From contig OZ252100.1 of the NCBI GenBank assembly GCA_965248435.1, forward strand, positions 1,472,001-1,536,000: a DNA stretch of 64,000 nucleotides, written 5' to 3'. Position 1 is the stretch's first letter. Each line of letters opens with the position of its first letter. Of the stretch, positions 29,362 to 58,900 are shown in pieces. A model generated the notes under the pieces. That model had not been told where the DNA came from, ran no database searches, and saw nothing but the letters and a program-made list of their open reading frames with translations. Source of the DNA: Candidatus Latescibacterota bacterium (GTDB lineage: Bacteria > Latescibacterota > UBA2968 > GCA-2709665). Both the position numbers and the translations under genes were made by a program.

Positions 29362-29390
29362 GTTAAAGAAGCCTCCCTTTCAGCGTCGCG

Positions 29391-32777: not shown

Positions 32778-32884
32778 GCGACGTTTCCCCTTTGACTTCC
32801 TTGAAAGTCGCGTTAACCTTAAGAGACTCAGCCTTTCTGACGAACATCCGTTTGCGGTACCCGGTACCCGTGTTTGATTTTCCC

Positions 32885-35754: not shown

Positions 35755-38700
35755 ATGTCTAAAAGATCTCCTATAAACTCCCTGCTGATCCCCATCTTGA
35801 TGTTCGCGTTGCCCCCTGTCGCAGAAGCCGAGGAACTCCTCTATTCTCCCGGCCAGATCCTGGTCAAGTTCAGAACACCCGCCTCAAAGCCCTCGCAGGA
35901 CCAGCTCCAGGACTTAGCCCGGCGATTCGGCGCCCAGGTTCCTGAACCCCTCTTCCCCGGCCCGCTCCGCCTCTCCAAACCGGTCTTGAATCTCCATCAG
36001 GTCTACCGCATCCGCATCCGGCCTGACGTAGACCCGCGAGAGGCCTCCGTCGCCTACGCAGCCCTCCGGGAGGTCGCCTACGCCCAGCCGAATCACCTCT
36101 TTCGACCGGTCCAGGCGCCAAACGACGAACGCTTCTCCGAACAGACCGGACTCTCGAACATCCACTGGCAGGAACTATGGGATAGGTTGGGCCCGAAACA
36201 GCAGGAAGTTGTCCTCGCCGTCATCGATTCCGGAATCGATACCGACCACGAAGACCTCGCGGAGAACATCTGGACGAACAAGGCGGAAGTCGAGGGACAG
36301 CCCGGTGTGGATGACGACCGGAATGGCTACGTCGACGACGTAAGCGGGTGGGACTTCTCGGATGCGCCCGACCTTCCCGCGAAGGGGGATTTCCTGACTC
36401 GGGACAACGACCCCTCCGACGAATCGGGTCACGGCACCCTCGTCGCCGGGATCGCCGCCGCGCGCGCTGACAATGGGGTCGGCATCGCCGGCGTGGCGCC
36501 GGACGCCAAATTGATGGCCCTCAGATGTGGGGTCCTCCTCCAGGCGGGCGGCAGCTTCTTCGAAGAAGACGACCTGGCCGCAGCCATCCTCTACGCCGTG
36601 GAGAACGGCGCCGATGTCATCAACATGAGCTGGGGCAGTTCGGAGCGGGCCTTTCTGATCCAGGACGCGATCCGCTACGCGTCGATCAACGGATGCGTGC
36701 TCGTGGCCGCCGCGGGCAACGAAGGGGAGTCCGGACTCTCTTATCCCGCGGCCTTCGACGAAACGATCGCCGTTGCTGCCACCGACCGAAACGATCTTGT
36801 CGCCAGTTTCAGCAGCAGAGGGTCGGGGCTCGATCTCTCGGCCCCGGGAATCAACATCCTGAGCACCCTGCCGGGCGACACCTACGGCTTCAGTTCCGGC
36901 ACCTCCTTTTCGGCGCCTCACATCTCCGGCCTGGCCGCGCTTCTACTTTCCCGGCGTCCCGAACTCACACCCGATCAGGTCAGATCGCTCCTGTCCGCTG
37001 CGACCGTAGACCTCGGCCCAGACGGCTGGGATGAGACGTTCGGTGCGGGGAGGATCGACGGTCTCGCCCTCTTGTCTCCCCTTTCGAGCCCGGACGCGCC
37101 CGCAACGGTCCAGATCCGCGCGCCGGGTGCGGACGCCGGGGCGGAGTCTGAATTCACCGTCCTCGCATCGGCCTCCGGTCAGGAAGTCACCGTTTACCGG
37201 ATCTCCTGGGGGCTCGGTCGCTCTCCTTCATCCTGGTCACCCCTCGATGAAGGTCCATCCTCGTCCGAAATTGAAGTCTCGTGGGATGTCTCCTCCCTGC
37301 CCGACACATCCGCGGTGCTGCGGCTGGAAGCCGACCTCGAAGACGGCAGGACACTCGAAGACCGTGTCCCCGTCTTCGTACGCCGATCCGCTCCCTCGAT
37401 CACAGGAATCGTGATCGGTCAAATCCTGGATCGTGATCGCAGGGTCTACGAAGTCCGCTGGCGCACGGATCAGCTCACAGAGGGGGTTGTCCTGTTTAAG
37501 CCCCTCGACGCGACCGAGGAAGACACGCTCTCCCTGGGATTCATCGACAGCACACATACGGCCAGGCTGCCTCAGGATTTGGCCGACGGACCTCTGCAGA
37601 TTCGCGTTCGGTCTGCGGGATCCTCCGGGAAGACCGTGCTCAGCGAACCCGACACCGTCACAGTCTCACCCCTTCTCGTTCAACGCGAAGGCTTCATAAA
37701 GGTCACGGAGCTGCCCGACGGTTTTCTCGCCGATCGGCCCTCGGATTTCGACGGCGACGGACTCGCAGAAATCGCGCTCATGCCCTACGTCGAAGGCCAG
37801 CCCTTCAGTCCGGTCCTGATCTACGAACAGACGGCGGAAGGTGAGTTTGCTCAGGTCTTTGAAAGCAGCGAAACCTTCCTGCCGTGGAGTGTGGGTGATG
37901 TCGACAACGATGGAAACCCGGACCTGCTCGGCTCTGAGCTGAGTAGACTTCGACTATTTACAGGCGGCCCCTTTCCGTCCACCCAGGTCCTGCAGCGGAC
38001 CCAGACCTGGGGCGGCGAGATCGCCGACCTGGACGGGGATGGGAAGAACGAAATCATCGCCCGCTCCGCCGTGATCCCGGGAATCGAAGTCCTCGAACAA
38101 GCATCCGACGGCGTGATCCGCGAGGTGACCTCCCTCTTCGACCCCACATCGGGCTCGGGTGACATTGGGGCGCGGTTCGTCATCGCCGATCTGGACGGCG
38201 ACGGAAGGAACGAACTCCTGGGAGGGGACGCGGACGGAGACCTCTGGGTCTTCGAATCGGACGGTGATGACAGCTATCGGTCCACGTGGAAGCTGGAAGG
38301 GGACGACGATACGGACGTGCGCTGGGTCGGCGGCGGCGTGGACCTGGATGGCGACGGGCAGATCGAATTTGCCGCCGCACGCGCGTCGGAGGACCCGACA
38401 GATCCGCTCAACGGGTTCTGGGACCTCGAGATCTACAGCGCGTCGGGTGACGACGCCTTTGCCCTCGAATGGACTACACGGATCACCGGGGTATCCACGA
38501 CAGGAAACGGGATCTCCGCTGGCGACGTGGACGGAGACGGAACCTTCGACCTGGCCGTCTGTCTCCTGCCCGACCTCTACATCTTCAGGTCTGATGGACC
38601 GGACGTCTACAGGCCGATCTGGTACAGCCCCGCCGGTCTCACCCACCGTCCCGTGATTGCGGACCTGGACGGTGACGATCGAACTGAAATCCTCTTCAAT

Positions 38701-39483
38701 CGTGACGGTGCCGTACAGGTCCTGGAGTGGGACGCACCGTTGAGGGAGGTCGTTTCACCCGAAATCCTCAGTGCGCGCCCGCTCGGACGAGACCGGGTCC
38801 AGCTCACCTGGGTGAAAACGCCAGAGGCCTCCGGCTATCGCCTACTCAGAGGCACCGACGCCGAAACGCTGGTGGCTCTGGAGGAAGGGCTGGTCGTGAC
38901 GGCGTTCATCGATACGACCGTTTTGGAAGGGCAGCTCTACTTCTACGCCATCGAAGCGATCCTGGGAGGTGAGGACAGCGTTCGATCTGGATCCGTATCC
39001 GTCCGTCCAGACGCCCCTCCCCAACTCATCCGATTGGATCCGATCGAAAACCGGCTCCACATCACGTTCAACCAGCCGATGGCTCCCGAAGCCGCCGATC
39101 CCGACAGATACTCCGTTCTACCCGGTGTCGGGCGCCCTGAATCCGCCATCCTCGACCAAGCCGGGATGCGAATCGTCCTCTCGTTCCCCGTCCCCTTCAT
39201 CGACGCCACAGACTACACGCTCCTGATCGGCGACGCGACCGACACGTCGGGCGTCCCCCTGGATACACCGTCGCAGACTACCCCCTTCACCCCGGGCCGA
39301 TCCGTTTACCCGGCGGCGAGCATCGCCGACTTTGACGATGACGGATCGGTTGGGTTCCTGGACTTCGTCCTCTTTGCATTGGCCTTCGAAAGCGCCGATC
39401 CCGATTTCGATCTGGATGAGGACGGCGCCGTCGCCTTCTCCGACTTCCTGCTGTTCGCCCTCATGTTCGGTCAAACGATTTAG
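35755..39483 (+). CDS. Secreted S8 subtilisin-like protease with FG-GAP repeats, FN3/Ig-like domains and C-terminal dockerin-like EF-hand pair
   Basis: Signal peptide; catalytic IDSG, GHGT, GTSFSAPH; many DxDGDG repeats; terminal ADFDDDGSVGFLDF...DLDEDGAVAFSDF. Confidence 0.93.
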   Translation: MSKRSPINSLLIPILMFALPPVAEAEELLYSPGQILVKFRTPASKPSQDQLQDLARRFGAQVPEPLFPGPLRLSKPVLNLHQVYRIRIRPDVDPREASVAYAALREVAYAQPNHLFRPVQAPNDERFSEQTGLSNIHWQELWDRLGPKQQEVVLAVIDSGIDTDHEDLAENIWTNKAEVEGQPGVDDDRNGYVDDVSGWDFSDAPDLPAKGDFLTRDNDPSDESGHGTLVAGIAAARADNGVGIAGVAPDAKLMALRCGVLLQAGGSFFEEDDLAAAILYAVENGADVINMSWGSSERAFLIQDAIRYASINGCVLVAAAGNEGESGLSYPAAFDETIAVAATDRNDLVASFSSRGSGLDLSAPGINILSTLPGDTYGFSSGTSFSAPHISGLAALLLSRRPELTPDQVRSLLSAATVDLGPDGWDETFGAGRIDGLALLSPLSSPDAPATVQIRAPGADAGAESEFTVLASASGQEVTVYRISWGLGRSPSSWSPLDEGPSSSEIEVSWDVSSLPDTSAVLRLEADLEDGRTLEDRVPVFVRRSAPSITGIVIGQILDRDRRVYEVRWRTDQLTEGVVLFKPLDATEEDTLSLGFIDSTHTARLPQDLADGPLQIRVRSAGSSGKTVLSEPDTVTVSPLLVQREGFIKVTELPDGFLADRPSDFDGDGLAEIALMPYVEGQPFSPVLIYEQTAEGEFAQVFESSETFLPWSVGDVDNDGNPDLLGSELSRLRLFTGGPFPSTQVLQRTQTWGGEIADLDGDGKNEIIARSAVIPGIEVLEQASDGVIREVTSLFDPTSGSGDIGARFVIADLDGDGRNELLGGDADGDLWVFESDGDDSYRSTWKLEGDDDTDVRWVGGGVDLDGDGQIEFAAARASEDPTDPLNGFWDLEIYSASGDDAFALEWTTRITGVSTTGNGISAGDVDGDGTFDLAVCLLPDLYIFRSDGPDVYRPIWYSPAGLTHRPVIADLDGDDRTEILFNRDGAVQVLEWDAPLREVVSPEILSARPLGRDRVQLTWVKTPEASGYRLLRGTDAETLVALEEGLVVTAFIDTTVLEGQLYFYAIEAILGGEDSVRSGSVSVRPDAPPQLIRLDPIENRLHITFNQPMAPEAADPDRYSVLPGVGRPESAILDQAGMRIVLSFPVPFIDATDYTLLIGDATDTSGVPLDTPSQTTPFTPGRSVYPAASIADFDDDGSVGFLDFVLFALAFESADPDFDLDEDGAVAFSDFLLFALMFGQTI

Positions 39484-39618
39484 AATTGGCCAACGTTGGG
39501 TTGTGATCTTCCTTGTAGGCCGCCCGGAGGCATGGTGTTGTGAAGTTCGCGATATAACCCACCCCGCCCCAGGAAGGGACTGGCGTCTCTCAAACTGACG
39601 AAAAAGTTTGCTCGAAAC

Positions 39619-39845
39619 CATCAGGGTCGCGGTGTGCGATTCCGATACAACCAGCTCATTTCTCCTCCCAGCGGGTTGGTTCCTCAGTGATCGCGAGCGC
39701 GTGGTGAGGATTTGGCCTTCCTGCCGTGGACTGTTTATGCCACTGAGGGTGAGGTGCCGCGGCCGGAGCCTCCCCGGCGCTTGAGGGGTGCCCTTCTTTT
39801 GTCCAACTTTTCTTGGGCGAGCAAGAAAAGTTGGCCGCCGGAGGC
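39619..39845 (+). repeat. 227-bp structured dispersed element copy 1 (putative ncRNA or non-autonomous mobile element)
   Basis: Near-identical to 40134-40360, diverged copy at 46377-46603; multiple stems; ends CCAACTTTTCTTGGGCGAGCAAGAAAAGTTGGCCGCCGGAGGC. Confidence 0.9.
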
Positions 39846-39964
39846 AAGGAGTTCGGGAAACGAAACGCCATCAATTGTGGATTGCGGATTTGGGATTGAA
39901 AGGCGGGATCACGAAACAACACGAAATTCCACGAAGGACACGAATGCATAGAGACGTCATCGGG

Positions 39965-40062
39965 AAATCCCCCTCAATCCCCCTTTTCCAAAGGGGGAAG
40001 AATACGTTCCGTGAATCGCCTCCCCCTTTGAAAAGATTCTTCGCCGAATGTTGGGGTTAAGG
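39965..40062. repeat. REP-like CCCCCTTT...AAAGGGGG element
   Basis: aatccccctcaatcccccttttccaaagggggaag and a degenerate partner tccccctttgaaaag. Confidence 0.55.
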
Positions 40063-40133
40063 TAGTAAGCTCTAATTGTAGACTCGCCCGCTTGCCGGCG
40101 TCTCTGTAACTCACGAAATGCATCGCTCAAAGT

Positions 40134-40360
40134 CATCAGGGCCGCGGTGTGCGACTCCGATGCAACCAGCTCATTTCTCCTCCCAGCGGGTTGGTTCCTC
40201 AGTGATCGCGAGCGAGTGGTGAGGATTTGGCCTTCCTGCCGTGGACTGTTTATGCCACTGAGGGTGAGGTGCCGCGGCCGGAGCCCCCCCGGCGCCTGAG
40301 GGGAGCCCTTCTTTTGTCCAACTTTTCTTGGGCGAGCAGGAAAAGTTGGCCGCCGGAGGC
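40134..40360 (+). repeat. 227-bp structured dispersed element copy 2
   Basis: Same length as copy 1, 515 bp downstream, substitutions only. Confidence 0.9.
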
Positions 40361-40523
40361 TAAAGGTGGTCGATCGTCGTTCGTCGTTCGTAGACCCACC
40401 CCGCCCAGCTCATAGTTCAGCGCTGTCTGGGTCACCGTTTCGAATTGCGACGGGGCACACCTCCTGGGAGGGGACTCGCAATCCTCTCTTGATATGCCCC
40501 TTGAATATGAAAGCCCCCATTCA

Positions 40524-40719
40524 GGGGTTCGCCAGCAGGAGTTGGCTCCTACCGGATACAATTCGCCAATTCATTCGGTAGGAGCCGTCTCCAGACGGCG
40601 AACAATTCGATCGCGATGTCTGTCTCGGACAACCGTACGTGCCGTCTCCTGACGGCGAACAATTCGATCACGGTGTGTCGTCTCGGACAGCTGTACCCGC
40701 CGTCTCCCGGCGGCGAACA
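40524..40719. repeat. Inverted GTAG-type REP doublet followed by a 57/58-bp tandem repeat
   Basis: gttcgcc...ggctcctac faces gtaggagcc...ggcgaac; core GCCGTCTCCnGnCGGCGAACA recurs at 40584, 40641, 40699. Confidence 0.8.
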
Positions 40720-40748
40720 TTCCAACCTTCGCCAAGGTTTGGAAATTC

Positions 40749-40777
40749 TTGACTCACCAGATGCCACATCGTACCAT
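40749..40777 (+). promoter_or_regulatory. Sigma-70 promoter
   Basis: TTGACT-N17-TACCAT upstream of ATG 40818. Confidence 0.6.
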
Positions 40778-40817
40778 AGGCCTTTCACCTTCCACATCTG
40801 CCACCCAGGGTCATGAG

Positions 40818-41738
40818 ATGGAAGCTTCGGCAAAAGAATCCATTCCCGAAATCCCCAGGGAGACGAAACTCTCGGAGGAGTACTTCTTCCATTACACCAC
40901 GGAATTGTCCTTCGAACCGGGAGAAGTCGCCTTCGTGATGATCGACCTCTGGAACACCGGGTTTGGCCCGGCGCCCCTTTCGGATCTGGGCTGGGAAGCG
41001 GAGTACAACTGCGGCAAGAGCTTTTGTGACCGGGCGGCGGAAATCGAGAAAACGAAGATTCTCCCCATGCTGGAGGCCTGCAGGGAGAACGGTCTGACCG
41101 TGGTACACGCGCCGACGCGCGACATTGCCCTGAAATACTCACAGTGGGAAACCCTCGCCACCGATCCAGAGAAACAGGCGGCGCGATCGAAAGGAGCGGC
41201 CAAGGTACCAGGGGGAAGGGCTGAATCGCCGACTTCGGCGACGTCTGACTGGCCTCCTTCCGACTGGGTGAAGCGCTGGCAGCTCGAGCACACCTTTCTG
41301 TATCGCACTGAGGAATGGATTACGAACTACTACGCGCAAGTCAGGCCCAACCAGGACATTCCGGCGCCCCTGCGTCCGGCCGGCGGCGACCTCGTCGTCT
41401 CTTCGGGGGAGATGCTGCACCGCCTGCTTCGGGATCGGCAGGTCAAGGTCCTGTTCTACTGCGGGTTCGCGGCGAACATGTGTTTGGCCGACAAATCGGG
41501 CGCGATCAAGGATATGTACAGTCGCGGCTACATGCCGATCGTCATTCGAGATGCGACCGCGGCCGTGGAAACCGCTCAAACGATCGACGGCCTCTGGGCG
41601 ACGCACGTGACCATCGACCAGATCGAAATGAAGTGGGGATACTCTGTGACGACCCATGAATTCCTCGAGGCGGTCAGGAGCGGCGGCAAGCTCACCCTGC
41701 CCTGCCGGTATGTTCGAATGCATAAACCCACGGAGTAG
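40818..41738 (+). CDS. Isochorismatase/cysteine hydrolase family protein
   Basis: [31 protein letters not shown]. Confidence 0.85.
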
Positions 41739-41745
41739 TCGAGCA

Positions 41746-42642
41746 ATGGCCCCTTATTCCATCCAAAGCCGGGAGAACCGATTCACGCTGCACCAGGGGG
41801 ACTGCCTCTCGGGAATGCGCAGCGAACTTCCCGATGGCTCCGTGGACGTCGTCGTGACCTCGCCCCCCTACAACCTTGGGACGAGTTATGAAGCCTACGA
41901 CGACACCATCCCGCGCGAACAATATCTGAACTGGCTCGATGAGTGGGCCTCCATCGTCAAGGAAGTGCTCGCAGACGAAGGCTCGCTCTTCCTGAACATC
42001 GGCGCCAAACCCTCCGACCCAACCGTCCCCTTCGAAGTCCTGAACATCGCACAGAAACACTTCCGCCTCCAGAACGTGATCCACTGGGTCAAATCGATCG
42101 CGATACAGAAGGAGGATGTCGGCGACTATCCCGGCATTACCGGAAACATCGGCGTGGGCCACTTTAAGCCGATCAACAGCCCGCGCTTTCTGAATGGCTG
42201 TCACGAATACATCTTCCACCTGACGAAACAGGGCGATGTCAAACTGGACCGCCTCGCGGTCGGCGTCGAGTACCAGGACAAGTCGAACGTCGCGCGGTGG
42301 AAGTCCGCCGGGCAGGATCGAAGGTGCCGGGGAAACACGTGGTTTATTCCCTACAAGACGATCAAGAGCCGGGAAAAACAGCGCCCGCATCCCGCCACCT
42401 TCCCCGTCAAGATTCCCAAGATGTGCATTCAGCTCCACGGCCTCGAGAGAGCGCGTCTGGTCCTCGACCCATTCTGCGGAATCGGCATGACGGCCCTGGC
42501 GTGTATGGAGCTCGGCATGGACTTCGTTGGATTCGAAATCGACCCGGCCTACTTCGAGGAGGCCCGAAGGGCGATCGCCTCGTTGGATTCGAACCCTGAA
42601 GATCATCTGATCAGCACATCTTCACAGGAGCCGCTCCGATGA
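41746..42642 (+). CDS. Site-specific amino-DNA methyltransferase (beta class, probably N4-cytosine), orphan
   Basis: GDCL, VTSPPYN (motif IV) N-terminal; HPATFP; VLDPFCGIG (motif I) C-terminal. Confidence 0.93.
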
Positions 42643-43409
42643 TCCTGGAAAAATTTTCGCTCAAAGACCAGGTCGGCATCGTGACAGGCGGGGGCCAGGG
42701 CCTGGGTGAGGCGTTCTGCAGCGCCTTCGCGGAAGTCGGCGCGGATATCGTCGTCGCCGAAATCAATCCGGAAACAGGTCCAGCTGCCGTCGCGAAAATC
42801 GAAGCGCTGGGCCGCCGGGCGCTCTTTGTCCGGACCGACGTCAGGGACCGTGAAAACGTCAACGAGATGGTCCAAAAGGTCCTGGAGAAGTTCGGCCGGG
42901 TCGATTTCCTGATGAACAACGCCGGCATCGTCTCCTGGGGAGAGGCCGAAAACGTCTCTCAAGCGGACTGGCTCAACGTCCTCGATGTGAACCTGAACGG
43001 GCTGTTCTATTGCTGTCAGGCCGTCTCGGCGCCCATGATCGAACACAGGAGCGGCCGCATCATCAACATCGCGTCCATGTCCGGGGCCATCGTGAACGTT
43101 CCTCAACCTCAGGCCTCCTACAACGCTTCGAAAGCGGCCGTCGTCCACCTCACCCGGTCCCTCGCGTCCGAGTGGGCCCCTCACAACATCAGGGTGAACG
43201 CCATCGCGCCCGGCTACATGAAAACCGCGATTACCCAGCCCTACATCGATAACCCCGAATACGGTGGGACGTGGATCGAGGCCACCCCCATGAAGCGTGC
43301 GGGACTCCCCGAGGAGCTCGCCCCTGCGGCCGTCTTCCTGGCCTCCGATGCCTCCAGCTTCGTCACCGGCACAACGATCACGATAGACGGCGGATTTACG
43401 CTCCGGTGA
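42639..43409 (+). CDS. SDR family oxidoreductase (sugar/polyol dehydrogenase-like)
   Basis: [23 protein letters not shown]. Confidence 0.93.
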
Positions 43410-43452
43410 TTTGCGTACGACTCTCGACGCTTCAATGCTTTCCGACTTCGCT

Positions 43453-43546
43453 ATTCTGGAGTATTGCAGTACTGGAGGGGTACTGGAAAGCCTCCAAATA
43501 AGCCCTGTCACCCCAATACTCCATTGCTCCATTACTCCATTTCCCC
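43453..43546 (+). repeat. Octamer-periodic hairpin element copy 3
   Basis: Identical 25-bp head; inverted arm ccaatactccattgctccattactccattt. Confidence 0.85.
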
Positions 43547-43579
43547 AAAACTAGCCCTTTTATTTGGAGATGCTTAGCC

Positions 43580-44431
43580 GTGAAAAAGACCTGGACCTGG
43601 TCCGTTACGAGCGGCCCCCTGCTCGGAAGATCCCACACCGAGATACAGGACATATGCAAACAGGCCGGCTCTGGCATCGAAGCGGGCATGAAACTGTTCG
43701 GCCTGATCCCGGAGGCGGAACTCGAAACCCTCGGCGAAGACTACCGGAGCGCAGGCGTCAGGATCGAAACCTTCCACCTCCCCTTTACGCCCCAGGACGA
43801 CCTCGCCTCCTTCTACGAGACGGTGAGGCAGAGAGCGGTTGAAACGGCCGTGCGCGGGATAGAGCGTGGAGCGGCGCTCGGGGCATCGGTCGGCATCCAG
43901 CATCCTTCGATGAGTACCTTCAGCGTAGATAACGAGGGCCTGGATCCGTTCATGAGGCAGCTCGGAAAGAGCCTGAAGACACTCCTCGATGTCGCCGAGA
44001 AGAACCGATTTACGATCGCGATCGAGAATATGGGCGCGAAAGGAAGACTGGGGGGTCGACCCGAACATTTCGAGCGCCTCAAGCAGGAATTCGACCATCC
44101 CAATCTCGGTTTTTGCCTGGACTCTGGACACGCCCTGATGGCCCTGGGTCCGGAACGCGCTGGCGAATTCTTCGACGTCATGGCCCCAAAGATCGTCGCT
44201 TTCCACCTGGCCGACAACGCGGGAGACCGCGACTCTCACCTGGCGCCCGGGCACGGTCTCGTCGACTGGACCGGATTCTTTCGGCGCGTCTCTGAGATCC
44301 AGTTTTCGCGTGCGATGTGCATCGAAACGCCGCCGTTCGCTCCCGGCCCGGACTACCGTCCGGAGGCGTGGAAAGAGATGGTCGCCGACGTGGACGCCCT
44401 CGCTCGGGCCGCACTGAGTGAACCGTCATGA
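43580..44431 (+). CDS. Sugar phosphate isomerase/epimerase (xylose isomerase-like TIM barrel)
   Basis: AIENM, CLDSGHA, FHLADN, HLAPGHG, CIE metal-binding motifs. Confidence 0.88.
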   Translation: MKKTWTWSVTSGPLLGRSHTEIQDICKQAGSGIEAGMKLFGLIPEAELETLGEDYRSAGVRIETFHLPFTPQDDLASFYETVRQRAVETAVRGIERGAALGASVGIQHPSMSTFSVDNEGLDPFMRQLGKSLKTLLDVAEKNRFTIAIENMGAKGRLGGRPEHFERLKQEFDHPNLGFCLDSGHALMALGPERAGEFFDVMAPKIVAFHLADNAGDRDSHLAPGHGLVDWTGFFRRVSEIQFSRAMCIETPPFAPGPDYRPEAWKEMVADVDALARAALSEPS

Positions 44432-45219
44432 AATGGGATGCCCGATACGGGCCCTGGGCGCTGGTCACAGGGGCATCGTCCGGACTGGGCGCGGAATTCG
44501 TCCGGCAGATCGCGGCAAGAGGGCTGAACGTCGTCCTGGTCGCCAGGCGCCGGGAGAAAATGCAGGCGCTTGCGGACGAAGTCGAGCGCGCGAGCGCCGT
44601 CCAGACCCGGGTCATACCCGCAGATCTCACCGAAGCGGGCGCCTGCACGGGCGTCGCTCAGGAAACGAGGGACCTGGAGATCGGCCTGCTGGTCAACAAC
44701 GCCGGTTTCGGTCTGTCCGGCGACTATCCATCCTGCGACCCGGATCGCCAGGTCAACATGACGGTCCTGAACTGTGTCGTACCGGTGCTCCTCACCAACC
44801 ACTTTCTCCCCCTGATGCTCGAGCGAGAGCGGGGCGGCATCATCTTCCTGGCCTCGACCGCCGCCTATCAGGCGACCCCCTACCTGGGAACCTACGGCGC
44901 CACCAAGGCCTTCAACCTCATGCTGGGGGAGTCCCTCTGGCGGGAGGTCCATCACCTGGGTGTCGACAGCCTCGCCCTTTCCCCCGGATTCACTAAGACG
45001 GAATTTCAGGCCGTCGCCAACATCGAGGATGCAGGCCCCTTCCGAGAGGCGACACCCGATGCCGTCGTCGCTAAGGGCCTGAAAAGTTTGGGGAAGCGGC
45101 CCTCCGTCGTTCACGGTGCCCTGAACAACCTGCTCACGTTTTCCACCCGAATCCTTCCCAGAAGGGCCGTCACCGCGATTACGGGGACCGCACTGAAGGG
45201 AAGGGCCACCTCCTCTTGA
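44428..45219 (+). CDS. SDR family oxidoreductase
   Basis: YGPWALVTGASSGLG, NNAG, YGATK. Confidence 0.93.
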   Translation: MKWDARYGPWALVTGASSGLGAEFVRQIAARGLNVVLVARRREKMQALADEVERASAVQTRVIPADLTEAGACTGVAQETRDLEIGLLVNNAGFGLSGDYPSCDPDRQVNMTVLNCVVPVLLTNHFLPLMLERERGGIIFLASTAAYQATPYLGTYGATKAFNLMLGESLWREVHHLGVDSLALSPGFTKTEFQAVANIEDAGPFREATPDAVVAKGLKSLGKRPSVVHGALNNLLTFSTRILPRRAVTAITGTALKGRATSS

Positions 45220-46325
45220 AACAGCTCACCTGCCAGGCTTGTAGCACGGTCTACCCCTTTGAAGACCCCAGGTGGAAGTGCGACTGCGGCCAACCTCTCG
45301 ATCTTCAATTTGATTCGCGCTTCAGCCCAGACCAGGTAAAAACCGGAAAGCCAACCATGTGGCGATACCGGGAGGCCCTGCCGATCCAGAATGACGGCCA
45401 CATCGTCTCCTTCGACGAAGGTTTCACGCCCCTTCTGGAGACGCGAATCGGCGGAAACAGAATCTGGATCAAACAGGAACAGCTCTTCCCCACCGGCTCA
45501 TACAAGGACCGGGGCGCGTCGGTCCTCATCAGCAGGGCCGTGGAGCTCGGCATTCGGAAGGTCGTGGAGGACTCATCAGGGAATGCAGGCGCAGCAATCG
45601 CCGCCTACGCCGCGCTTGCCGGAATCGAATGTGAGATCTTCGTACCCGAGGCGACCGCACCGGCGAAACTCGCACAGATCGGGCTCTACGGTGCGGCGCT
45701 CCACAAGGTACCTGGCTCGCGCGAAGATACGGCGCGCGCCGTCCTCGTGGCCGCGGAGACCGAATTCTACGCAAGCCATTCCTGGTCCCCCTTCTTTCTT
45801 CACGGCACCAAGACCTACGCCTACGAAATCTGGGAACAGCTCGGGTTCAGTGCGCCGGACGTATTGATTATCCCGACGGGCAACGGGACCCTTCTGATCG
45901 GCGCCTACCTCGGATTTCAAGACCTCCTGTCCCAAAACCTCATCTCCGCGCTTCCCAGAATCATCGCGGTTCAGTCGGAAAACTGTGCGCCTCTACACAA
46001 GATGTGGGCGGATCGGCTGGAGCAGCTTCCCCCCATGCAGCCGGAGAAAACCATCGCAGAGGGCATCGCCATCGCAGAACCCATCAGAGGCCGACAGACC
46101 GTCGACGCGGTCCGCAAGACCGAGGGGGCGTTCGTCACCGTATCGGAACGCGAGATTTTGACCGCGCTCGTGGAAATGGGCAGGAACGGTTGGTTTATGG
46201 AGCCAACGTCTGCCGCGGCTTTTGCAGGGCTCGAGAAATGCAGCATCGATGAACGGGAGACCGTCGTCGTACCGATCACGGGGCACGGCCTAAAATCGAC
46301 CGACAAACTGCTCAGCCTCCTGTAG
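45216..46325 (+). CDS. thrC: Threonine synthase-like PLP-dependent enzyme
   Basis: N-terminal CxxC...CxCG; PTGSYKDRG PLP lysine; SSGNAG; PTGNGT; EPTSA; TGHGLK. Confidence 0.85.
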   Translation: MKQLTCQACSTVYPFEDPRWKCDCGQPLDLQFDSRFSPDQVKTGKPTMWRYREALPIQNDGHIVSFDEGFTPLLETRIGGNRIWIKQEQLFPTGSYKDRGASVLISRAVELGIRKVVEDSSGNAGAAIAAYAALAGIECEIFVPEATAPAKLAQIGLYGAALHKVPGSREDTARAVLVAAETEFYASHSWSPFFLHGTKTYAYEIWEQLGFSAPDVLIIPTGNGTLLIGAYLGFQDLLSQNLISALPRIIAVQSENCAPLHKMWADRLEQLPPMQPEKTIAEGIAIAEPIRGRQTVDAVRKTEGAFVTVSEREILTALVEMGRNGWFMEPTSAAAFAGLEKCSIDERETVVVPITGHGLKSTDKLLSLL

Positions 46326-46376
46326 ATATTGCCGTTACCCTAAGCCTTACAGCTCGCGAAACATATGGATCAAAGA

Positions 46377-46603
46377 CATCAGGGCCGCGGTGTGCGACTT
46401 ACCTTGCAACGAAGGGATTTCACCTCCAAGCGGATTGGACCCTCAGTGATCGTGAGCGCGTGGTGAGGATTTGGCCATCCTGCCGTGATCGTTTTTTCCA
46501 CTGAGGGTAAGGTGCCGCGGCCAAAGCCGCCGCGGCGACTGAGCGGCGCCCTTCTTTTGTCCAACTTTTCTTGGGCGAGCAAGAAAAGTTGGCCGCCGGA
46601 GGC
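46377..46603 (+). repeat. 227-bp structured dispersed element copy 3 (diverged)
   Basis: Same length and same 3' tail as copies 1 and 2; substitutions preserve stems. Confidence 0.9.
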
Positions 46604-46675
46604 ACGGTGTGTTGGGGTGGGGCGAATACAATTGAGATTTCGGTCCACGAGTAACGAACGACATAAAGAGAAAGA

Positions 46676-47227
46676 ATGAAACACGAGCGAATATCGGTTT
46701 TCTGTGGATCGAGCGACAACTCGGGCCGTGCCTATCACGAGGCCGCCGACCGTCTCGGGAGGATCCTGGCCAGAAGCGGGATCACGATCGTTTACGGCGG
46801 GGGGTCTACAGGACTCATGGGAAGGCTCGCGGATGCGGCGCTGGAGGAAGGCGGGAAGGTGGTTGGCGTCCTGCCCGGCTTTATGGACCAGAAAGAGTGG
46901 GGACACAGGGGCCTGACGGAGCTCCGGATGGTGGACGACATGCACCAGAGGAAGCGGGCGATGCTGGACGCCTCCGACGCCTGTGTCGCGCTGCCGGGAG
47001 GGTGTGGGACATTCGAGGAACTCTTCGAGGTCATCGCCTGGAAAAGCCTCGACCTGCACGGAAAGCCGATCGTAATCGTGAACGTGGAAGGGTTTTACGA
47101 CCCCTGCATGGAACTCCTGGAGCGAAGTATTTCCGAGGGGTTCATGACCCCGACTCACAGAGCAATCTGGACGCTCGTTCGTTCGCCCGATGAGGTCCTT
47201 CAAGCCCTGCAGTCCCCCCCGAGCTGA
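46676..47227 (+). CDS. LOG family protein (TIGR00730-type phosphoribohydrolase)
   Basis: VFCGSS, YGGG..GLMG, MHQRK, PGGCGTFEE motif. Confidence 0.93.
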   Translation: MKHERISVFCGSSDNSGRAYHEAADRLGRILARSGITIVYGGGSTGLMGRLADAALEEGGKVVGVLPGFMDQKEWGHRGLTELRMVDDMHQRKRAMLDASDACVALPGGCGTFEELFEVIAWKSLDLHGKPIVIVNVEGFYDPCMELLERSISEGFMTPTHRAIWTLVRSPDEVLQALQSPPS

Positions 47228-47278
47228 GAGAGAAACCTTCCCGCTCACCCTGCCTGCGCCAGACGACCGCTCGGAAGC

Positions 47279-47307
47279 TTGACATTTTCGCCCCGACGTC
47301 ATATACT
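47279..47307 (+). promoter_or_regulatory. Sigma-70 promoter
   Basis: TTGACA-N17-TATACT upstream of the MBL hydrolase. Confidence 0.75.
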
Positions 47308-47404
47308 ATTCCCACAAATGTGGCATATCCTACTAGTAAATCATTTACTTATCTCGCTCAACTCGATTCCCGCACCGCCACGAGCCGCGGGGAAAACCTA
47401 ACCG

Positions 47405-48355
47405 ATGTGGATCAAATTCTGGGGCGTTCGAGGGTCAGTCGCCTCCCCCATCTCGACTGAGGCACTCGAAGGCAAGCTGGTCGACCTCCTGCTCGCCTCC
47501 AATGGCCTCCAATTCTCGGGTCCGGACGAGGCCAGAGAATACCTCCACACCCATCCGATCTTCAAACGGGGCACCGTAGGCGGCAACACCTCCTGCGTGG
47601 AGATTCAGGCAGAGGGAAGCCGCCTCATCATCGACTCTGGGACGGGCATTTCGGGACTCGGCCGAGCCCTGATGCAGGAGGAATTTGGAAAGGGAAAGGG
47701 TCGGGCCGACATCCTGATGAGCCACACCCACTGGGATCACATCAGTGGGTTTCCGTTTTTCCCACCTATTTTCGTCCCCGGGAACCAGATTACGCTCTAC
47801 GGCTGCCATACTCACCTCAAGGATCGCTTTCTGAATCAGCACCACGAATACAATTTTCCCGTGCCATTCGAAGCGCTGCCGGCGGGCGTGAAATTTCGCA
47901 AATTATCCGCAGGCAAAGAAAAGAAGCTGGGCCCGTTTTCAGTAACTCCCGTCAAGCTCGTTCACCCCGGAGATTCCTACGCCTACAGGATCGAGCAAAA
48001 CAAACGCGCGTTCGTTTACGCAAGCGATGCCTCTTATGCCAATCTTCCTGCCAAGCTTATGGAGAAGTATATTGAGTTTTTCAAGAATGCCGACGCGCTC
48101 GTATTCGATGCACACTTTGCCTTGCTCGATTCGTTCGAAAAGAGCGACTGGGGTCACAGCTCGTCATTCATCGGGGTGGACATCGCCCTCAAAGCGAATG
48201 CCAAACACCTGATTCTCTACCACCACGATCCCTACAGCGACGACACTCAGCTGCAAAACCTGGTTCGGAGTACGCAGGAATACCTCGATCACGTTTCGCC
48301 GGACGGGAACTGCCGGGTCCTGATCGCCTACGAGGGATTGGAGATAGATCTCTAG
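47405..48355 (+). CDS. MBL-fold metallo-hydrolase (phosphodiesterase-like)
   Basis: FWGVRGS, GGNTSC, SHTHWDHISG, HPG, WGHS, YHHDP. Confidence 0.92.
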   Translation: MWIKFWGVRGSVASPISTEALEGKLVDLLLASNGLQFSGPDEAREYLHTHPIFKRGTVGGNTSCVEIQAEGSRLIIDSGTGISGLGRALMQEEFGKGKGRADILMSHTHWDHISGFPFFPPIFVPGNQITLYGCHTHLKDRFLNQHHEYNFPVPFEALPAGVKFRKLSAGKEKKLGPFSVTPVKLVHPGDSYAYRIEQNKRAFVYASDASYANLPAKLMEKYIEFFKNADALVFDAHFALLDSFEKSDWGHSSSFIGVDIALKANAKHLILYHHDPYSDDTQLQNLVRSTQEYLDHVSPDGNCRVLIAYEGLEIDL

Positions 48356-55746: not shown

Positions 55747-55775
55747 CTTAAGGGCTAAGCGAACGACGGATCTTG

Positions 55776-55916
55776 CGGTACCCGTGTTTTGTCTTCCCGG
55801 TACCCGTGCTTTGCTTTCCCGGTACCCGTGCTTTGCTTTCCCGGTACCCGTGCCCTGCTTTCCCGGTACCCGTGCCCTGCTTTCCCGGTACCCGTGTTTT
55901 GTCTTCCCGGTACCCG
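55776..55916. repeat. 22-bp tandem repeat, six full units plus a partial
   Basis: Unit CGGTACCCGTGyyyTGyyTTCC at 55776, 55798, 55820, 55842, 55864, 55886 and partial at 55908. Confidence 0.92.
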
Positions 55917-55926
55917 GTCTTATGTC

Positions 55927-58900
55927 CTACTTCAATAACATCATCTTCTTGACCTCCCCGAATCCTTCAGCCGCCATTCGAACGAAGTAGAGGCCGCTCG
56001 ACACCGAACGTCCGCCCGTATCCCGCCCGTCCCACTGGATTCGGTAATAACCGGCCTCCTGACGGCCCTCCATCAGCAGCCTCACTTCCTGACCCAGGAT
56101 GTTGTAGACCCTCAGGGTCACCTCGGATGCCTCGGGCAGTTGATAGGCGATCTGAGTCACCGGGTTGAACGGATTCGGAAAATTTTGATTCAACGCATAC
56201 GCATCCGGCAGCGCACGCACTTCCGCGGCGTGCGCCCCGACGAGCTCGCGAACCCGACCCAGACCGTCCGATATGAAGGCCTCGGCGATCTCTACACGAC
56301 CCCCCATCGTCTCATCCAGCAGACGGAACTTCAGGCGAACCAGGTCGCCTTCGCCCTGAAGCAGGCCATCCGCTGTGAAGACGTCGGAAAGGACGACCTC
56401 TCCATTCGTAGATGCGTCCTCGATGGCCACCCCGGTCGGGCCAGATCCATCTGTGAATAGTGATGAAGACTGAGCCTCTGCACCCAGCCAGGCCATTGCC
56501 GAAGGATCATAAGTCAACTTGAAGCTGAACCCACCCACCTCGTCAGCTTCATTCAGTCGAACGAGGAGGTCCACTTCTCCGGACTTCTCACTTTGTGTGG
56601 GGACCAGGTTGAGCTCGGCCTTCCCGTTCGGATTCTGAACCGCGGGTAAAACAGGCTTCGTCAACACGATATCCGAGACATTTTTGTTGAAGTTCAAAGA
56701 GAAAGCCACGAAGTCGAAGAAAGAGACGGTCCCGTCCCCGTCCAGATCTGCCCCATCGATAAACTGCGCGTCTCCCTGGGACGATAGGAACGAAGTCCCG
56801 AAACTCACGAAGTCCAGGAACCCGACAAATCCGTCTCCGTCTATGTCTCCGACGCGCACATCCGCGCCCGCTTTACCGATTACCGCAGTGGCGCCACCCG
56901 AGCCGATGTCTAGGAACACCTGATCGGCGCCGATCGCAAACTGCCCGGAGACAATCGTGATACTGGTCTCCTCAGCCGCCAGGAGGTTGAGTGTGAGCGT
57001 GCCCAGACTGCCCGAATCCTTCGTCGCTACATCTGTGCCCAGGAACACGACAGCCAGCGTGACCACCCCGTCATCAGTCACCGGAATGGCCGCCGCTCCT
57101 TCGAATACGTCCGCAGGTTCGAAATCGTCAAATTCCACCAGAGCCGGATCGTGCTCCAAGGTGACCTGAAAACCCGAGGCTCCGAGAATGCCCTCCGTGA
57201 CAGCCAGATCAAGGGTTATTGTTTCACCCACCTCCAGGGCGGCCGATACTCGGCGCTGTCCCTGGTCGCCCGATGTGAGGTCACCGTCCAGGACGACCGG
57301 TCCTTCGGGCGGCTCCGGGGCCTCGACTTCGACCAGGGCAGAGCTCGCGCCCTCGGTCGACACCCTGACGGACACTGTCCCAGTCCCGGTCGCTGCAAGG
57401 GTCGCCTTCGCTTTCCCTCCGGAGGCCGTCAGGGTGACCGACTCCTCGCCGTTGACCGTGGCGTCTCCACCCGACACGACGAACGTGACGTCGGAACTGT
57501 TGTCGTCCGTGAACGGGAGGCCTTCCAGATCGAGCAGTTCGGCAGTGAGGATCGCCTCCTCGATGCCATCTGCTGCGATCGATTCCACGTCGCTGCTCAC
57601 GATGATCTGTTTCGTGGCCGCCTCACCTTCGATCTGGGCGGTCACGTTGGGTTGCAGGGTCTGAGTGCCCGCGCTGCTTTCCAGAACGAGCTGTGTCACC
57701 ACAATATCAGTCGTGCCGGAGAATCCCTCGTTCACCCTGAACGTGAAGAAACCCACGGGCCCCTTGCCCGACACCATCTGGTCCTCCGACGCACCCAGGA
57801 TCACGGCCGACAAGTTGAAAAAGCCCCCGCTGACCGTGGGAATCGACAGCACGAACCCTTCGTTCTGCTCCAGCAGGTGGGGCTCACCCTCTTGATTGAG
57901 CACCGCATCCACAAACGTCACTGCCGTCGGATCGGTTTCGAGCAGCAGATCGACCCCGAACAGGCCCTCCGGACCCTCGAGATAGACCGCCACCGTGAAT
58001 TCACCTCCGGGTTCACCCTGAACGAAGTCCAGTCCCTGGTCATCCAGTGTCGCATCCAGATCGATCGTGACCGGAGAGGCTGCCGCCGAGATCAACTCTA
58101 CTTCCTCGACCTCATCCACTTCCTCCGGTTGAACCACACCAATCGCAATTCCACTCACCGAGTCCCCTGCGGTCACCCCTATCACATCTGGAGCACCATC
58201 ACCATCCGTATCAAGGAAACCGCTGGTTGAGCCGGTGGTCGTCTCGGCTGTGACAAAGAGCGTGTAGTCTCCTTCCGGAAGATCCGTGATCGTGAAACTG
58301 CCGTCCTCCTCGATGCTAGACTGTCCCTCCCGCTCGCCATCGGCGTCCACGGCGATCACTTCCCCGGAGAGACCGACTTCCGACCAATCGACCGTCGCCT
58401 GCTTGGTCGCGGCTGGCTGCGTCGCACCCAATCCCGTAACGTCGATCGTCCCGGTGATGCTGCCCAGCAGCGCCAGTGTCCCGCCGGTGGAGAACTTTGA
58501 AGAGATCGGGCGCGTGAGCGCCTGATTCCTTTCGCCCACCGCACTCACGACCCTGAGCGAGTAAGTCGTTTCACCCGCGATCTCCGCGGGAAAGGCCACG
58601 GTTACACCGTCATCCAGCAGCGTCCCACCCCTCAGGAGCCCCCCTCTGGGACCCGGCTTGAGGAATGCGGTCACGTGGACGAACTCGCCCGACACCTTGA
58701 TCGGTTCCGTGAACGTAATCAGGACTTCACTCGTCACCTCGGGATCCACGCCGGTCTCGCCGTCTGCGGGAACAGTAGACGCCACCGTGAGCCGCTTCGG
58801 TTTGGCCCTGATCAGGAAGGACGCCCTGTCTTCGAGGCCTCGTATCGACGGCACCTGCACCCGGATCTTGTGCCTTCCGGTCCGGAGGTTATTCACGATT

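Follow-up and report, generated by a model that had tools for sequence, protein, structure and literature searches.

TwoAYGGAY RNAs of Pseudomonadota are described in a recent preprint as having an elongated basal stem, three additional hairpins and a 3′ pseudoknot; in its main text these extended RNAs are multi-copy, bordered by repeats and mobile-like, with arrays of 5–6-nt GMTBT(T) repeats upstream and large or repetitive extragenic palindromic (REP) repeats downstream, and the idea that they act as Csr/Rsm sponges is raised (bioRxiv 10.64898/2026.09.22.753630). That main text places the extension largely in Pseudomonadota and contains no triple helix, miniature inverted-repeat transposable elements (MITEs), Latescibacterota or expression data (10.64898/2026.09.22.753630). 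Here we analyse a 64,000-nt stretch of a Candidatus Latescibacterota genome (C1:1472001-1536000, where C1 is contig OZ252100.1 of assembly GCA_965248435.1; hereafter the window) that carries three copies of a non-coding repeated element with a 227-nt core. We consider it probable that this is a mobile, multi-copy structured element related to the extended TwoAYGGAY RNAs, with a 3′ domain that folds into a triple-helix pseudoknot, and that it acts as a small RNA with a 3′ cap.

The cores of copies 1, 2 and 3 lie on the plus strand at 39619-39845, 40134-40360 and 46377-46603 (227 nt each), where a preliminary description of the window had placed them, together with about 37 nt of weaker homology upstream and a sharp 3′ end. 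A gapless repeat search joined them into one family of three 264-nt units that include this 37-nt leader (39582-39845, 40097-40360 and 46340-46603), with 93% identity for copy 2 and 63% gapless identity for copy 3; in a MAFFT alignment of the three copies, mean column identity was 86% and similarity dropped abruptly past GGAGGC. Coding potential was rejected, given that the copies differ by 1-nt indels. No Rfam family matched any of the three copies (region 38000-48000, E ≤ 1), the sole hits in that region at this threshold being two to a sub-threshold miRNA model at 40529-40601. BLAST with a window copy gave 62 matches in the genome, and an nhmmer profile of the three copies gave 92 hits (E ≤ 1e-3), including 33 that are near full length; merging fragments leaves 83 elements (about 83 as a summary figure), all intergenic, and with so many further copies in the genome, chance resemblance is excluded. 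The earlier description of a non-coding, structured, non-autonomous repeat outside Rfam is supported. The last bases and tail of another core copy survive as a remnant just past a subtilase gene (39515-39531, plus strand), followed by the usual downstream linker.

For three helices, the fold is supported by compensatory change. The outer helix P1, which pairs 39625-39634 with 39754-39764 in copy 1, 40140-40149 with 40269-40279 in copy 2 and 46383-46392 with 46512-46522 in copy 3 (all plus strand), reads GGCCGCGG/CCGCGGCC in this genome, whereas the sister genome has GGCCGTGGCG/CGCCACGGCC instead and other genera have GCTTTTCCGCG/CGCGGAAAAGC, with the variants GATTTT../..AAAATC, GGTTTTTCCGTG/CACGGAAAAACC and ..CCACG/CGTGG... 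When 53 distinct elements from several genera are aligned, 6 of the 12 P1 pairs show double-sided changes; one pair, for instance, is CG 27 times, UA 21 times and AU 4 times. Over the whole structure, 96.6% of cells in this alignment are paired as against 92.1% in shuffles, and the covariation score is 0.138 compared with 0.055 after shuffling, a value that 0 of 500 shuffles reach (slid controls, 0.027–0.055). The GC hairpin (40285-40303, plus strand, in copy 2) has one covarying position among 22 copies from this genome (GC in 12, CG in 9, broken in 1), and across genera a G-C/C-G swap divides the elements 48 to 5. The terminal hairpin keeps its outer 5–7 pairs through many compensatory changes. 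Covariation, which the preliminary description had proposed from three copies, therefore stands for these three helices, and in the outer helix and the 3′ domain the proposed fold is borne out.

Triple-helix RNA pseudoknots and 3′ caps are known from telomerase RNA, the SAM-II riboswitch and the MALAT1/PAN ENE, and the natural RNA triple helices known to cap 3′ ends belong to eukaryotic and viral RNAs. From its sequence, the 3′ domain of the window element seems to form an H-type pseudoknot, in which the loop of the terminal hairpin pairs with the 4–6 bases immediately 5′ of a pyrimidine linker; RNAalifold, unprompted, predicts this pairing (S1). On the plus strand of copy 1, the 5′ side of S1 (S1a, GCCC) and then the linker L1 (TTCTTTT), the proposed Hoogsteen strand, occupy 39789-39801, followed by the terminal hairpin S2 at 39802-39834 (39802-39815 with 39822-39834), whose loop (39816-39821) pairs with S1a, and by the tail CCGCCGGAGGC at 39835-39845, where conservation within the genome stops. 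The corresponding parts, again on the plus strand, are 40304-40316 (S1a and L1), 40317-40330 with 40337-40349 (S2), 40331-40336 (loop) and 40350-40360 (tail) in copy 2, whose purine strand has an A>G change that would weaken one triple, and 46547-46559, 46560-46573 with 46580-46592, 46574-46579 and 46593-46603 in copy 3.

We parsed 35 such modules singly, taken from this genome, nine relatives, two gammaproteobacteria found via RF01731 (TwoAYGGAY) and six other lineages; a structure-blind MAFFT alignment shifted register between tract-length classes and was not used for pair counts. S1 pairing reaches at least 3 bp in all 35 modules and at least 4 bp in 29, with a mean length of 4.49 bp when each module is matched with its own loop and 2.97 bp with foreign loops (711 pairs), and it occurs in the complementary versions GCGCCC/GGGCGC, GTGCCC/GGGCAC, CGAC/GTCG, GGCA/TGCC, GCGCG/CGCGC, GTCGCC/GGCGAC, GTGCG/CGCAC and GTA/TAC. 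The linker, in turn, is a parallel image of the purine strand of the hairpin (U opposite A and C opposite G in the same 5′-to-3′ direction), not its reverse complement. This parallel match, in a run of at least 5, is present in 34 of the 35 modules and falls into 10 parsed classes, 6–7 of them truly distinct: UUCUUUU/AAGAAAA, UUCUUUUU/AAGAAAAA, UUCUUU/AAGAAA, CUUUU/GAAAA, UUUUU/AAAAA and UUUCUUUU/AAAGAAAA. A control comparing parallel with antiparallel matches was uninformative because the tracts are nearly mirror-symmetric. As the linker, purine and Watson–Crick strands covary three-way, we infer that the linker forms a major-groove triple helix of U.A-U and C+.G-C triples, with loop 1 in the deep groove of stem 2. 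In H-type pseudoknots a single nucleotide can span the deep groove over 5–7 bp, and the 5–7 bp at the foot of the hairpin would match the span that the chain crosses on re-entering the helix.

Such an arrangement would resemble the known triple-helix pseudoknots in having loop 1 in the major groove of stem 2 and U.A-U triples with an interrupting C+.G-C, and MALAT1 in its block order of Hoogsteen strand, Watson–Crick U-strand and A-rich strand. The window element differs from these RNAs in that it has no sequence relation to them, lacks the fixed downstream gene class of a riboswitch and is bacterial, multi-copy and mobile; moreover, the A-rich strand of its module is internal, with 5–7 more bp after it.

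The same 3′ module ties the element to TwoAYGGAY RNAs. An Rfam scan of 16 related loci returned TwoAYGGAY in Spectribacter and nothing else: at two Spectribacter loci, RF01731 matches at 229-358 (45.1 and 43.0 bits; cut-off 43) are followed on the same strand, after a gap of about 40 nt, by the module at 401-429. RF01731 matches occur in 7 of 121 sampled genomes of Spectribacter’s class, and the module stands downstream of RF01731 in 10 of the 15 loci inspected, all 10 from two genomes with their own covarying versions; the other 5, from three further genomes, have no module downstream. The module is presumably the 3′ pseudoknot that the main text of the preprint describes. The element also has an elongated basal stem (P1) enclosing a hairpin domain, and many cores are followed at a fixed distance by a GC-rich double-hairpin repeat; upstream, an inspection without counts revealed no clear array of 5–6-nt repeats. 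It thus shares with the extended TwoAYGGAY RNAs a multi-copy, intergenic occurrence, a basal helix around hairpins, the 3′ module found downstream of RF01731, mobile-like variation in copy number and companion repeats downstream, and is distinguished from them by the lack of AYGGAY hairpins, by a different central domain in at least two versions and by a host without csrA. We read it as a Latescibacterota variant of the extended TwoAYGGAY architecture, with the same chassis and another central payload, and not as a member of RF01731.

The element had been called undescribed, which is partly right: it matches no Rfam family and the Latescibacterota variant is new, but its 3′ domain is common to TwoAYGGAY-containing RNAs, with a 3′ pseudoknot reported in the main text of the 2026 preprint, whose supplements and figures may already show it. 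Our literature search found no paper with the sequence strings of the module and none on Latescibacteria repeats or noncoding RNA. In Pseudomonas fluorescens SBW25, the R200 repeat family (320 bp) has 47 copies (PMC2718517, Table 3) and the preprint’s main text counts 48 TwoAYGGAY matches (10.64898/2026.09.22.753630); given these similar copy numbers, the two may be the same element.

Copies of the window element are modular. The central domain exists in at least two non-alignable, exchangeable versions, the last hairpin is missing from many copies, and the final 80 nt or so are also found alone; BLAST from a window copy reached other genera only via the last 110 nt or so. Among the 80 loci listed in a pattern scan, the carriers are Candidatus Latescibacterota metagenome-assembled genomes (MAGs), with 12 from other lineages: three from Spectribacter, two from Candidatus Oleimmundimicrobium and one each from a Patescibacteria MAG, a Desulfuromonadales MAG, Geothermobacter, a Nitrospirae MAG, a Comamonas MAG, an Eubacteriales MAG and a Thermodesulfovibrionia MAG. 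The 3′ module was found in some gammaproteobacteria and in at least eight other lineages. Within the phylum, 20 of 168 genomes contain the exact module pattern, at up to 87 copies per genome, with 14 of 21 genomes in the window’s own family and 3 of 31, 2 of 3 and 0 of 76 in others; the reversed control pattern gave 0 everywhere. The window’s genome also holds a copy at C1:4970631-4970819 (locus L011:2705-2893, minus strand) whose P1 has the GATTTTTCCGCG form usual in other genera; two subfamilies thus coexist there. A dense cluster at C1:4.92-5.04 Mb comprises about 30 elements within 120 kb, all on the minus strand, with ISL3 and IS30 copies among them.

How the family moves is visible at the ends of its larger units. 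Many cores are preceded, about 60 nt upstream, by a 22-bp inverted repeat that, with its partner, bounds a 1323-bp insertion sequence (IS) encoding a 404-aa transposase (DDE_Tnp_ISL3, 6.9e-66) and making an 8-bp duplication; the genome holds nine identical full-length copies of this ISL3 element and one broken copy. Of the 74 elements with a preserved 5′ part, at least 27 have the left ISL3 repeat ahead of them, and at ten loci both repeats surround a core, 386–627 bp apart, with flanking 8-bp duplications matching at 8/8 positions in four, 7/8 in two, 6/8 in two and 3/8 or fewer in two. ISL3-type insertions occur within REP-like palindromes, at the AT-rich centre. These units thus have inverted repeats identical to those of the resident autonomous ISL3 element, 8-bp AT-rich target duplications and no internal transposase gene, as ISL3-derived MITEs do, and since the autonomous element lacks the core, the core is their cargo. 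It is not bound to them: window copies 1 and 3 lack the inverted repeats, and in the sister genome a homologous core lies inside an unrelated MITE of about 495 bp with different inverted repeats and 4-bp duplications (11 copies aligned, 92–97% identity).

The absence of terminal repeats, target duplication and transposase that the preliminary description had reported accordingly holds for copies 1 and 3 but fails for copy 2, which is preceded by the left inverted repeat of an ISL3-type MITE (40035-40056, plus strand); no matching right repeat follows downstream, so this MITE is incomplete. Nearby, a REP-like palindrome, CCCCC-TTTTCCAAA-GGGGG, spans 39979-39997 and has an AT-rich centre of the ISL3/MITE target type. 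A second REP-like palindrome (CCCCC-T/A-rich-GGGGG) lies at about 40015-40034. Ahead of copy 1 stands half of the GC-rich companion repeat (39557-39580, plus strand; the left half ACCCACCCCGCCC and the right-half-like AGGAAGGGAC), copy 3 has neither repeat, and a second, interrupted companion copy occupies 40394-40475. In full, this companion repeat consists of ACCCACCCCGCCCC, a short loop, GGGGCACCCCTCC, a short loop and GGAGGGGAC, keeps its fixed distance 3′ of many cores and lies between tandem ones. Core and companion repeat also form tandem units, two examples being C1:5001976 and C1:5002306. When contigs from four DNA runs were compared with 38500-47500, two runs had a joint 39570>40466 and a third run had one like it; we rejected this joint as an empty site because its sides are short (34 and 28 letters) and both are repeats; those contigs otherwise stop or diverge at repeats, and no clean empty site was obtained from the four runs for any copy. 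At four places (C1:2780389, 3786537, 3936612 and 4966092), the core 3′ end has an IS30-like transposase gene (327 aa) no more than about 70 nt away, which suggests a preferred IS30-like insertion site beside the fold.

The preliminary description had suggested other routes, namely mobilisation by a HUH/Y1 enzyme or service as a guide-RNA scaffold whose variable 3′ flank is the guide; the first would make the element palindrome-associated, the second akin to an omega-RNA or bridge-RNA. Resemblance to the palindrome-associated transposable elements (PATEs) and omega-RNAs of IS200/IS605 is real as regards the subterminal hairpin, the sharp end about 11 nt past it and an orientation bias linked to replication, and the genome has five Y1_Tnp matches, two of them strong. 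These two Y1 genes (C1:2292534-2292875 and 3762381-3762722), however, are flanked by their own conserved and unrelated hairpins, GTGGAAAT.AATTTCCAC upstream and GCGCGGGAAT.CATTCCCGCGC downstream, and neither Y1/TnpB ends nor adjacency to such genes was found for the element. One IS200-like Y1 locus has an extra solo copy of these ends. Among 125 open reading frames flanking the 83 elements, no gene family recurs (the largest clusters have 4 IS30-like, 4 and 3 members), and TnpA-Y1, TnpB, IscB, IS110 and reverse transcriptase genes show no link to the copies. The 3′ flanks, proposed as guides, are mostly other repeats, and the inverted repeats and duplications typical of a DDE transposon explain mobility. 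Guide or HUH function is largely refuted, and we give it very little credence.

Action in cis on messenger RNA was weighed from the neighbouring genes. All three window copies lie downstream of plus-strand genes and on the same strand, and in copies 1 and 2 the GC hairpin with the U-rich linker was flagged as terminator-like, so that the element could be a REP-like stabiliser of 3′ untranslated regions or a terminator, read through from the upstream gene, with the triple-helix cap shielding the upstream message. We nevertheless regard this as improbable. Flanking-gene orientation over the family is mixed (30 same/same, 24 opposite/opposite, 13 and 16), such that 46 of the 83 elements share the strand of the upstream gene and 24 are antisense to both neighbours; low-copy genomes of other phyla have unrelated housekeeping genes (ruvB, rpe, rsmB, purC, gltA, prfC) beside it, in either orientation, and no recurring neighbour protein was found there. 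No terminator-like site was found at copy 3, and the covariation of the linker with the downstream hairpin needs one molecule that extends past the supposed termination point.

Several observations weigh against a plus-strand small RNA of the TwoAYGGAY kind. The inner helix CCTCAGTG/CACTGAGG, for which covariation had also been proposed, shows only one-sided changes or mismatches in the 22 copies. The element had been called highly structured, and although its pairings covary, a single sequence is no stabler than its shuffles on the plus strand (z = +0.68, 149 of 200 shuffles at least as stable; z = −0.88 on the minus strand). G-T wobbles had been taken to favour the plus strand as the folded one, a point that the helices of the larger alignment overturn: G.U and A.C occur 5 times each, and wobble pairs name no folded strand. 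S1 is invariant in the pattern-ascertained alignment, its covariation coming from our per-module parsing, and the triple helix is read entirely from sequence patterns. The truncation of many copies fits decaying selfish DNA. RF01731 has no match in the whole genome at E ≤ 10, and no csrA was found in this genome (97.5% complete); as both are without a match there, the only published idea of function is not transferable to it, and a CsrA sponge is rejected here. The 23 sequencing runs listed include no RNA run that contains the stretch, and a scan for sigma-70-like promoters ahead of the copies, with a consensus that does not cover the promoters of this phylum, found none.

Orientation adds to these points. 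GC skew places the origin at about 3.0 Mb and the terminus at about 0.2 Mb, and the sense strand is the lagging strand in 70 of the 83 elements (binomial p ~1e-10, a value that overstates the effect, the copies not being independent events), with corresponding counts of 40 of 53 outside the 4.92-5.04 Mb cluster, 21 of 27 behind an ISL3 repeat and 40 of the 47 others. The bias is large, and our preferred explanation does not account for it: a lagging-strand bias is easier to understand at the DNA level, and transcription would run head-on to replication. Because orientation follows replication and not genes, G.U and A.C are equally frequent, and neither an RNA run among those listed nor a promoter-like site was found, we keep as a serious though unlikely alternative that the element works as DNA, its single strand forming an intrastrand triplex and hairpins of the PIT/BoxC/TM-ECO type for replication, recombination or mobility, with no functional RNA. 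The linker and the hairpin arm together make a homopyrimidine mirror repeat of the kind that classically marks triplex DNA, and at this locus the contigs of related strains break off or diverge.

Bacterial intrastrand triplex repeats (PIT/BoxC/TM-ECO) were reportedly described by Hoyne et al. in 2000, as relayed by Holder et al. In the latter, TM-ECO forms a purine-motif triplex that is rich in G/C and has the pattern CCCTCNCCC N3-6 GGGNGAGGG N3 GGGNGAGGG, and such repeats are abundant, conserved and tied to genome instability (Holder et al. 2015, PMC4666352). The window element is like them in having three consecutive triplex-capable blocks on one strand and in being multi-copy, intergenic and variable in copy number between close relatives. 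Unlike TM-ECO, its module has a U/A-rich, pyrimidine-motif triple that would be locked by a pseudoknot at the end of a larger fold, and the TM-ECO/BoxC pattern was absent from the core module, which is U/A-rich with another block order. The companion repeat, read on the reverse strand, resembles the G/C-rich TM-ECO/BoxC pattern; the core does not. What further sets RNA above DNA is that a multi-helix junction with an H-type pseudoknot of conserved loop lengths is typical of RNA, that the module is co-linear and on the same strand with an Rfam RNA motif, that the C+ triple of the pyrimidine motif is weak in DNA at neutral pH, and that conservation of primary sequence across phyla suggests a conserved partner, not mere instability.

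The window holds other repeats as well. At 40529-40601, the site of the weak, sub-threshold miRNA-model hits (both strands), lies a near-perfect palindromic hairpin, after which three tandem units of about 57 nt run to 40734; the hairpin sequence recurs ahead of an IS200-like Y1 transposase gene at another place (L060:1215-1300). About eight 22-nt tandem repeats (CGGTACCCGTG.TTTG.TTTCC) lie at 55754-55951, with relatives at 32855 and 63323; a 47-nt repeat (..GGAGTATTGCAGTACTGGAGTG..) has four dispersed copies, at 29389, 30543, 43451 and 51285; and two adjoining 238-nt direct repeats of 75% identity occupy 61181-61667.

In the explanation that we favour, a mobile relative of the extended TwoAYGGAY RNAs that acts as a small RNA, the element would consist of a short conserved leader, P1 enclosing a variable and exchangeable multi-hairpin domain, a small GC hairpin and the conserved 3′ domain, in which the linker UUCUUUU would run parallel to the purine strand AAGAAAA through U.A-U and C+.G-C triples. 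ISL3-derived MITEs, probably moved by the active ISL3 transposase into the AT-rich centres of REP-like palindromes, would carry the core, as would the unrelated MITE with 4-bp duplications in the sister genome, and tandem duplication would add further copies. The plus strand would be transcribed into a small RNA whose triple-helix knot may, by analogy with the MALAT1/PAN-type triple helix, serve as a 3′ cap against 3′-to-5′ exonucleases, and the variable domain may display hairpins to a protein partner, which, as the genome lacks csrA, is not CsrA here. More tentatively, and as a possibility we would not press, P1 and the triple-helix pseudoknot could be a portable RNA chassis shared across phyla, a bacterial counterpart of the MALAT1/ENE cap that makes a payload long-lived and has been captured repeatedly by unrelated MITEs; the payload would then be AYGGAY decoys in Pseudomonadota and other hairpins in Latescibacterota, and a stable RNA payload would pay for the ride.

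If true, a widespread bacterial triple-helix 3′ cap would be both a new tool and a new principle of decay control, and the long-orphaned TwoAYGGAY class would gain a modular anatomy of constant chassis and swappable payload. The class would reach phyla without CsrA, which would argue against its sole proposed function as a general one. Structured RNA modules as cargo of two unrelated MITE families would provide a concrete route for the horizontal spread of noncoding RNA genes, and the replication-linked orientation of the elements is an unexplained yet testable constraint.

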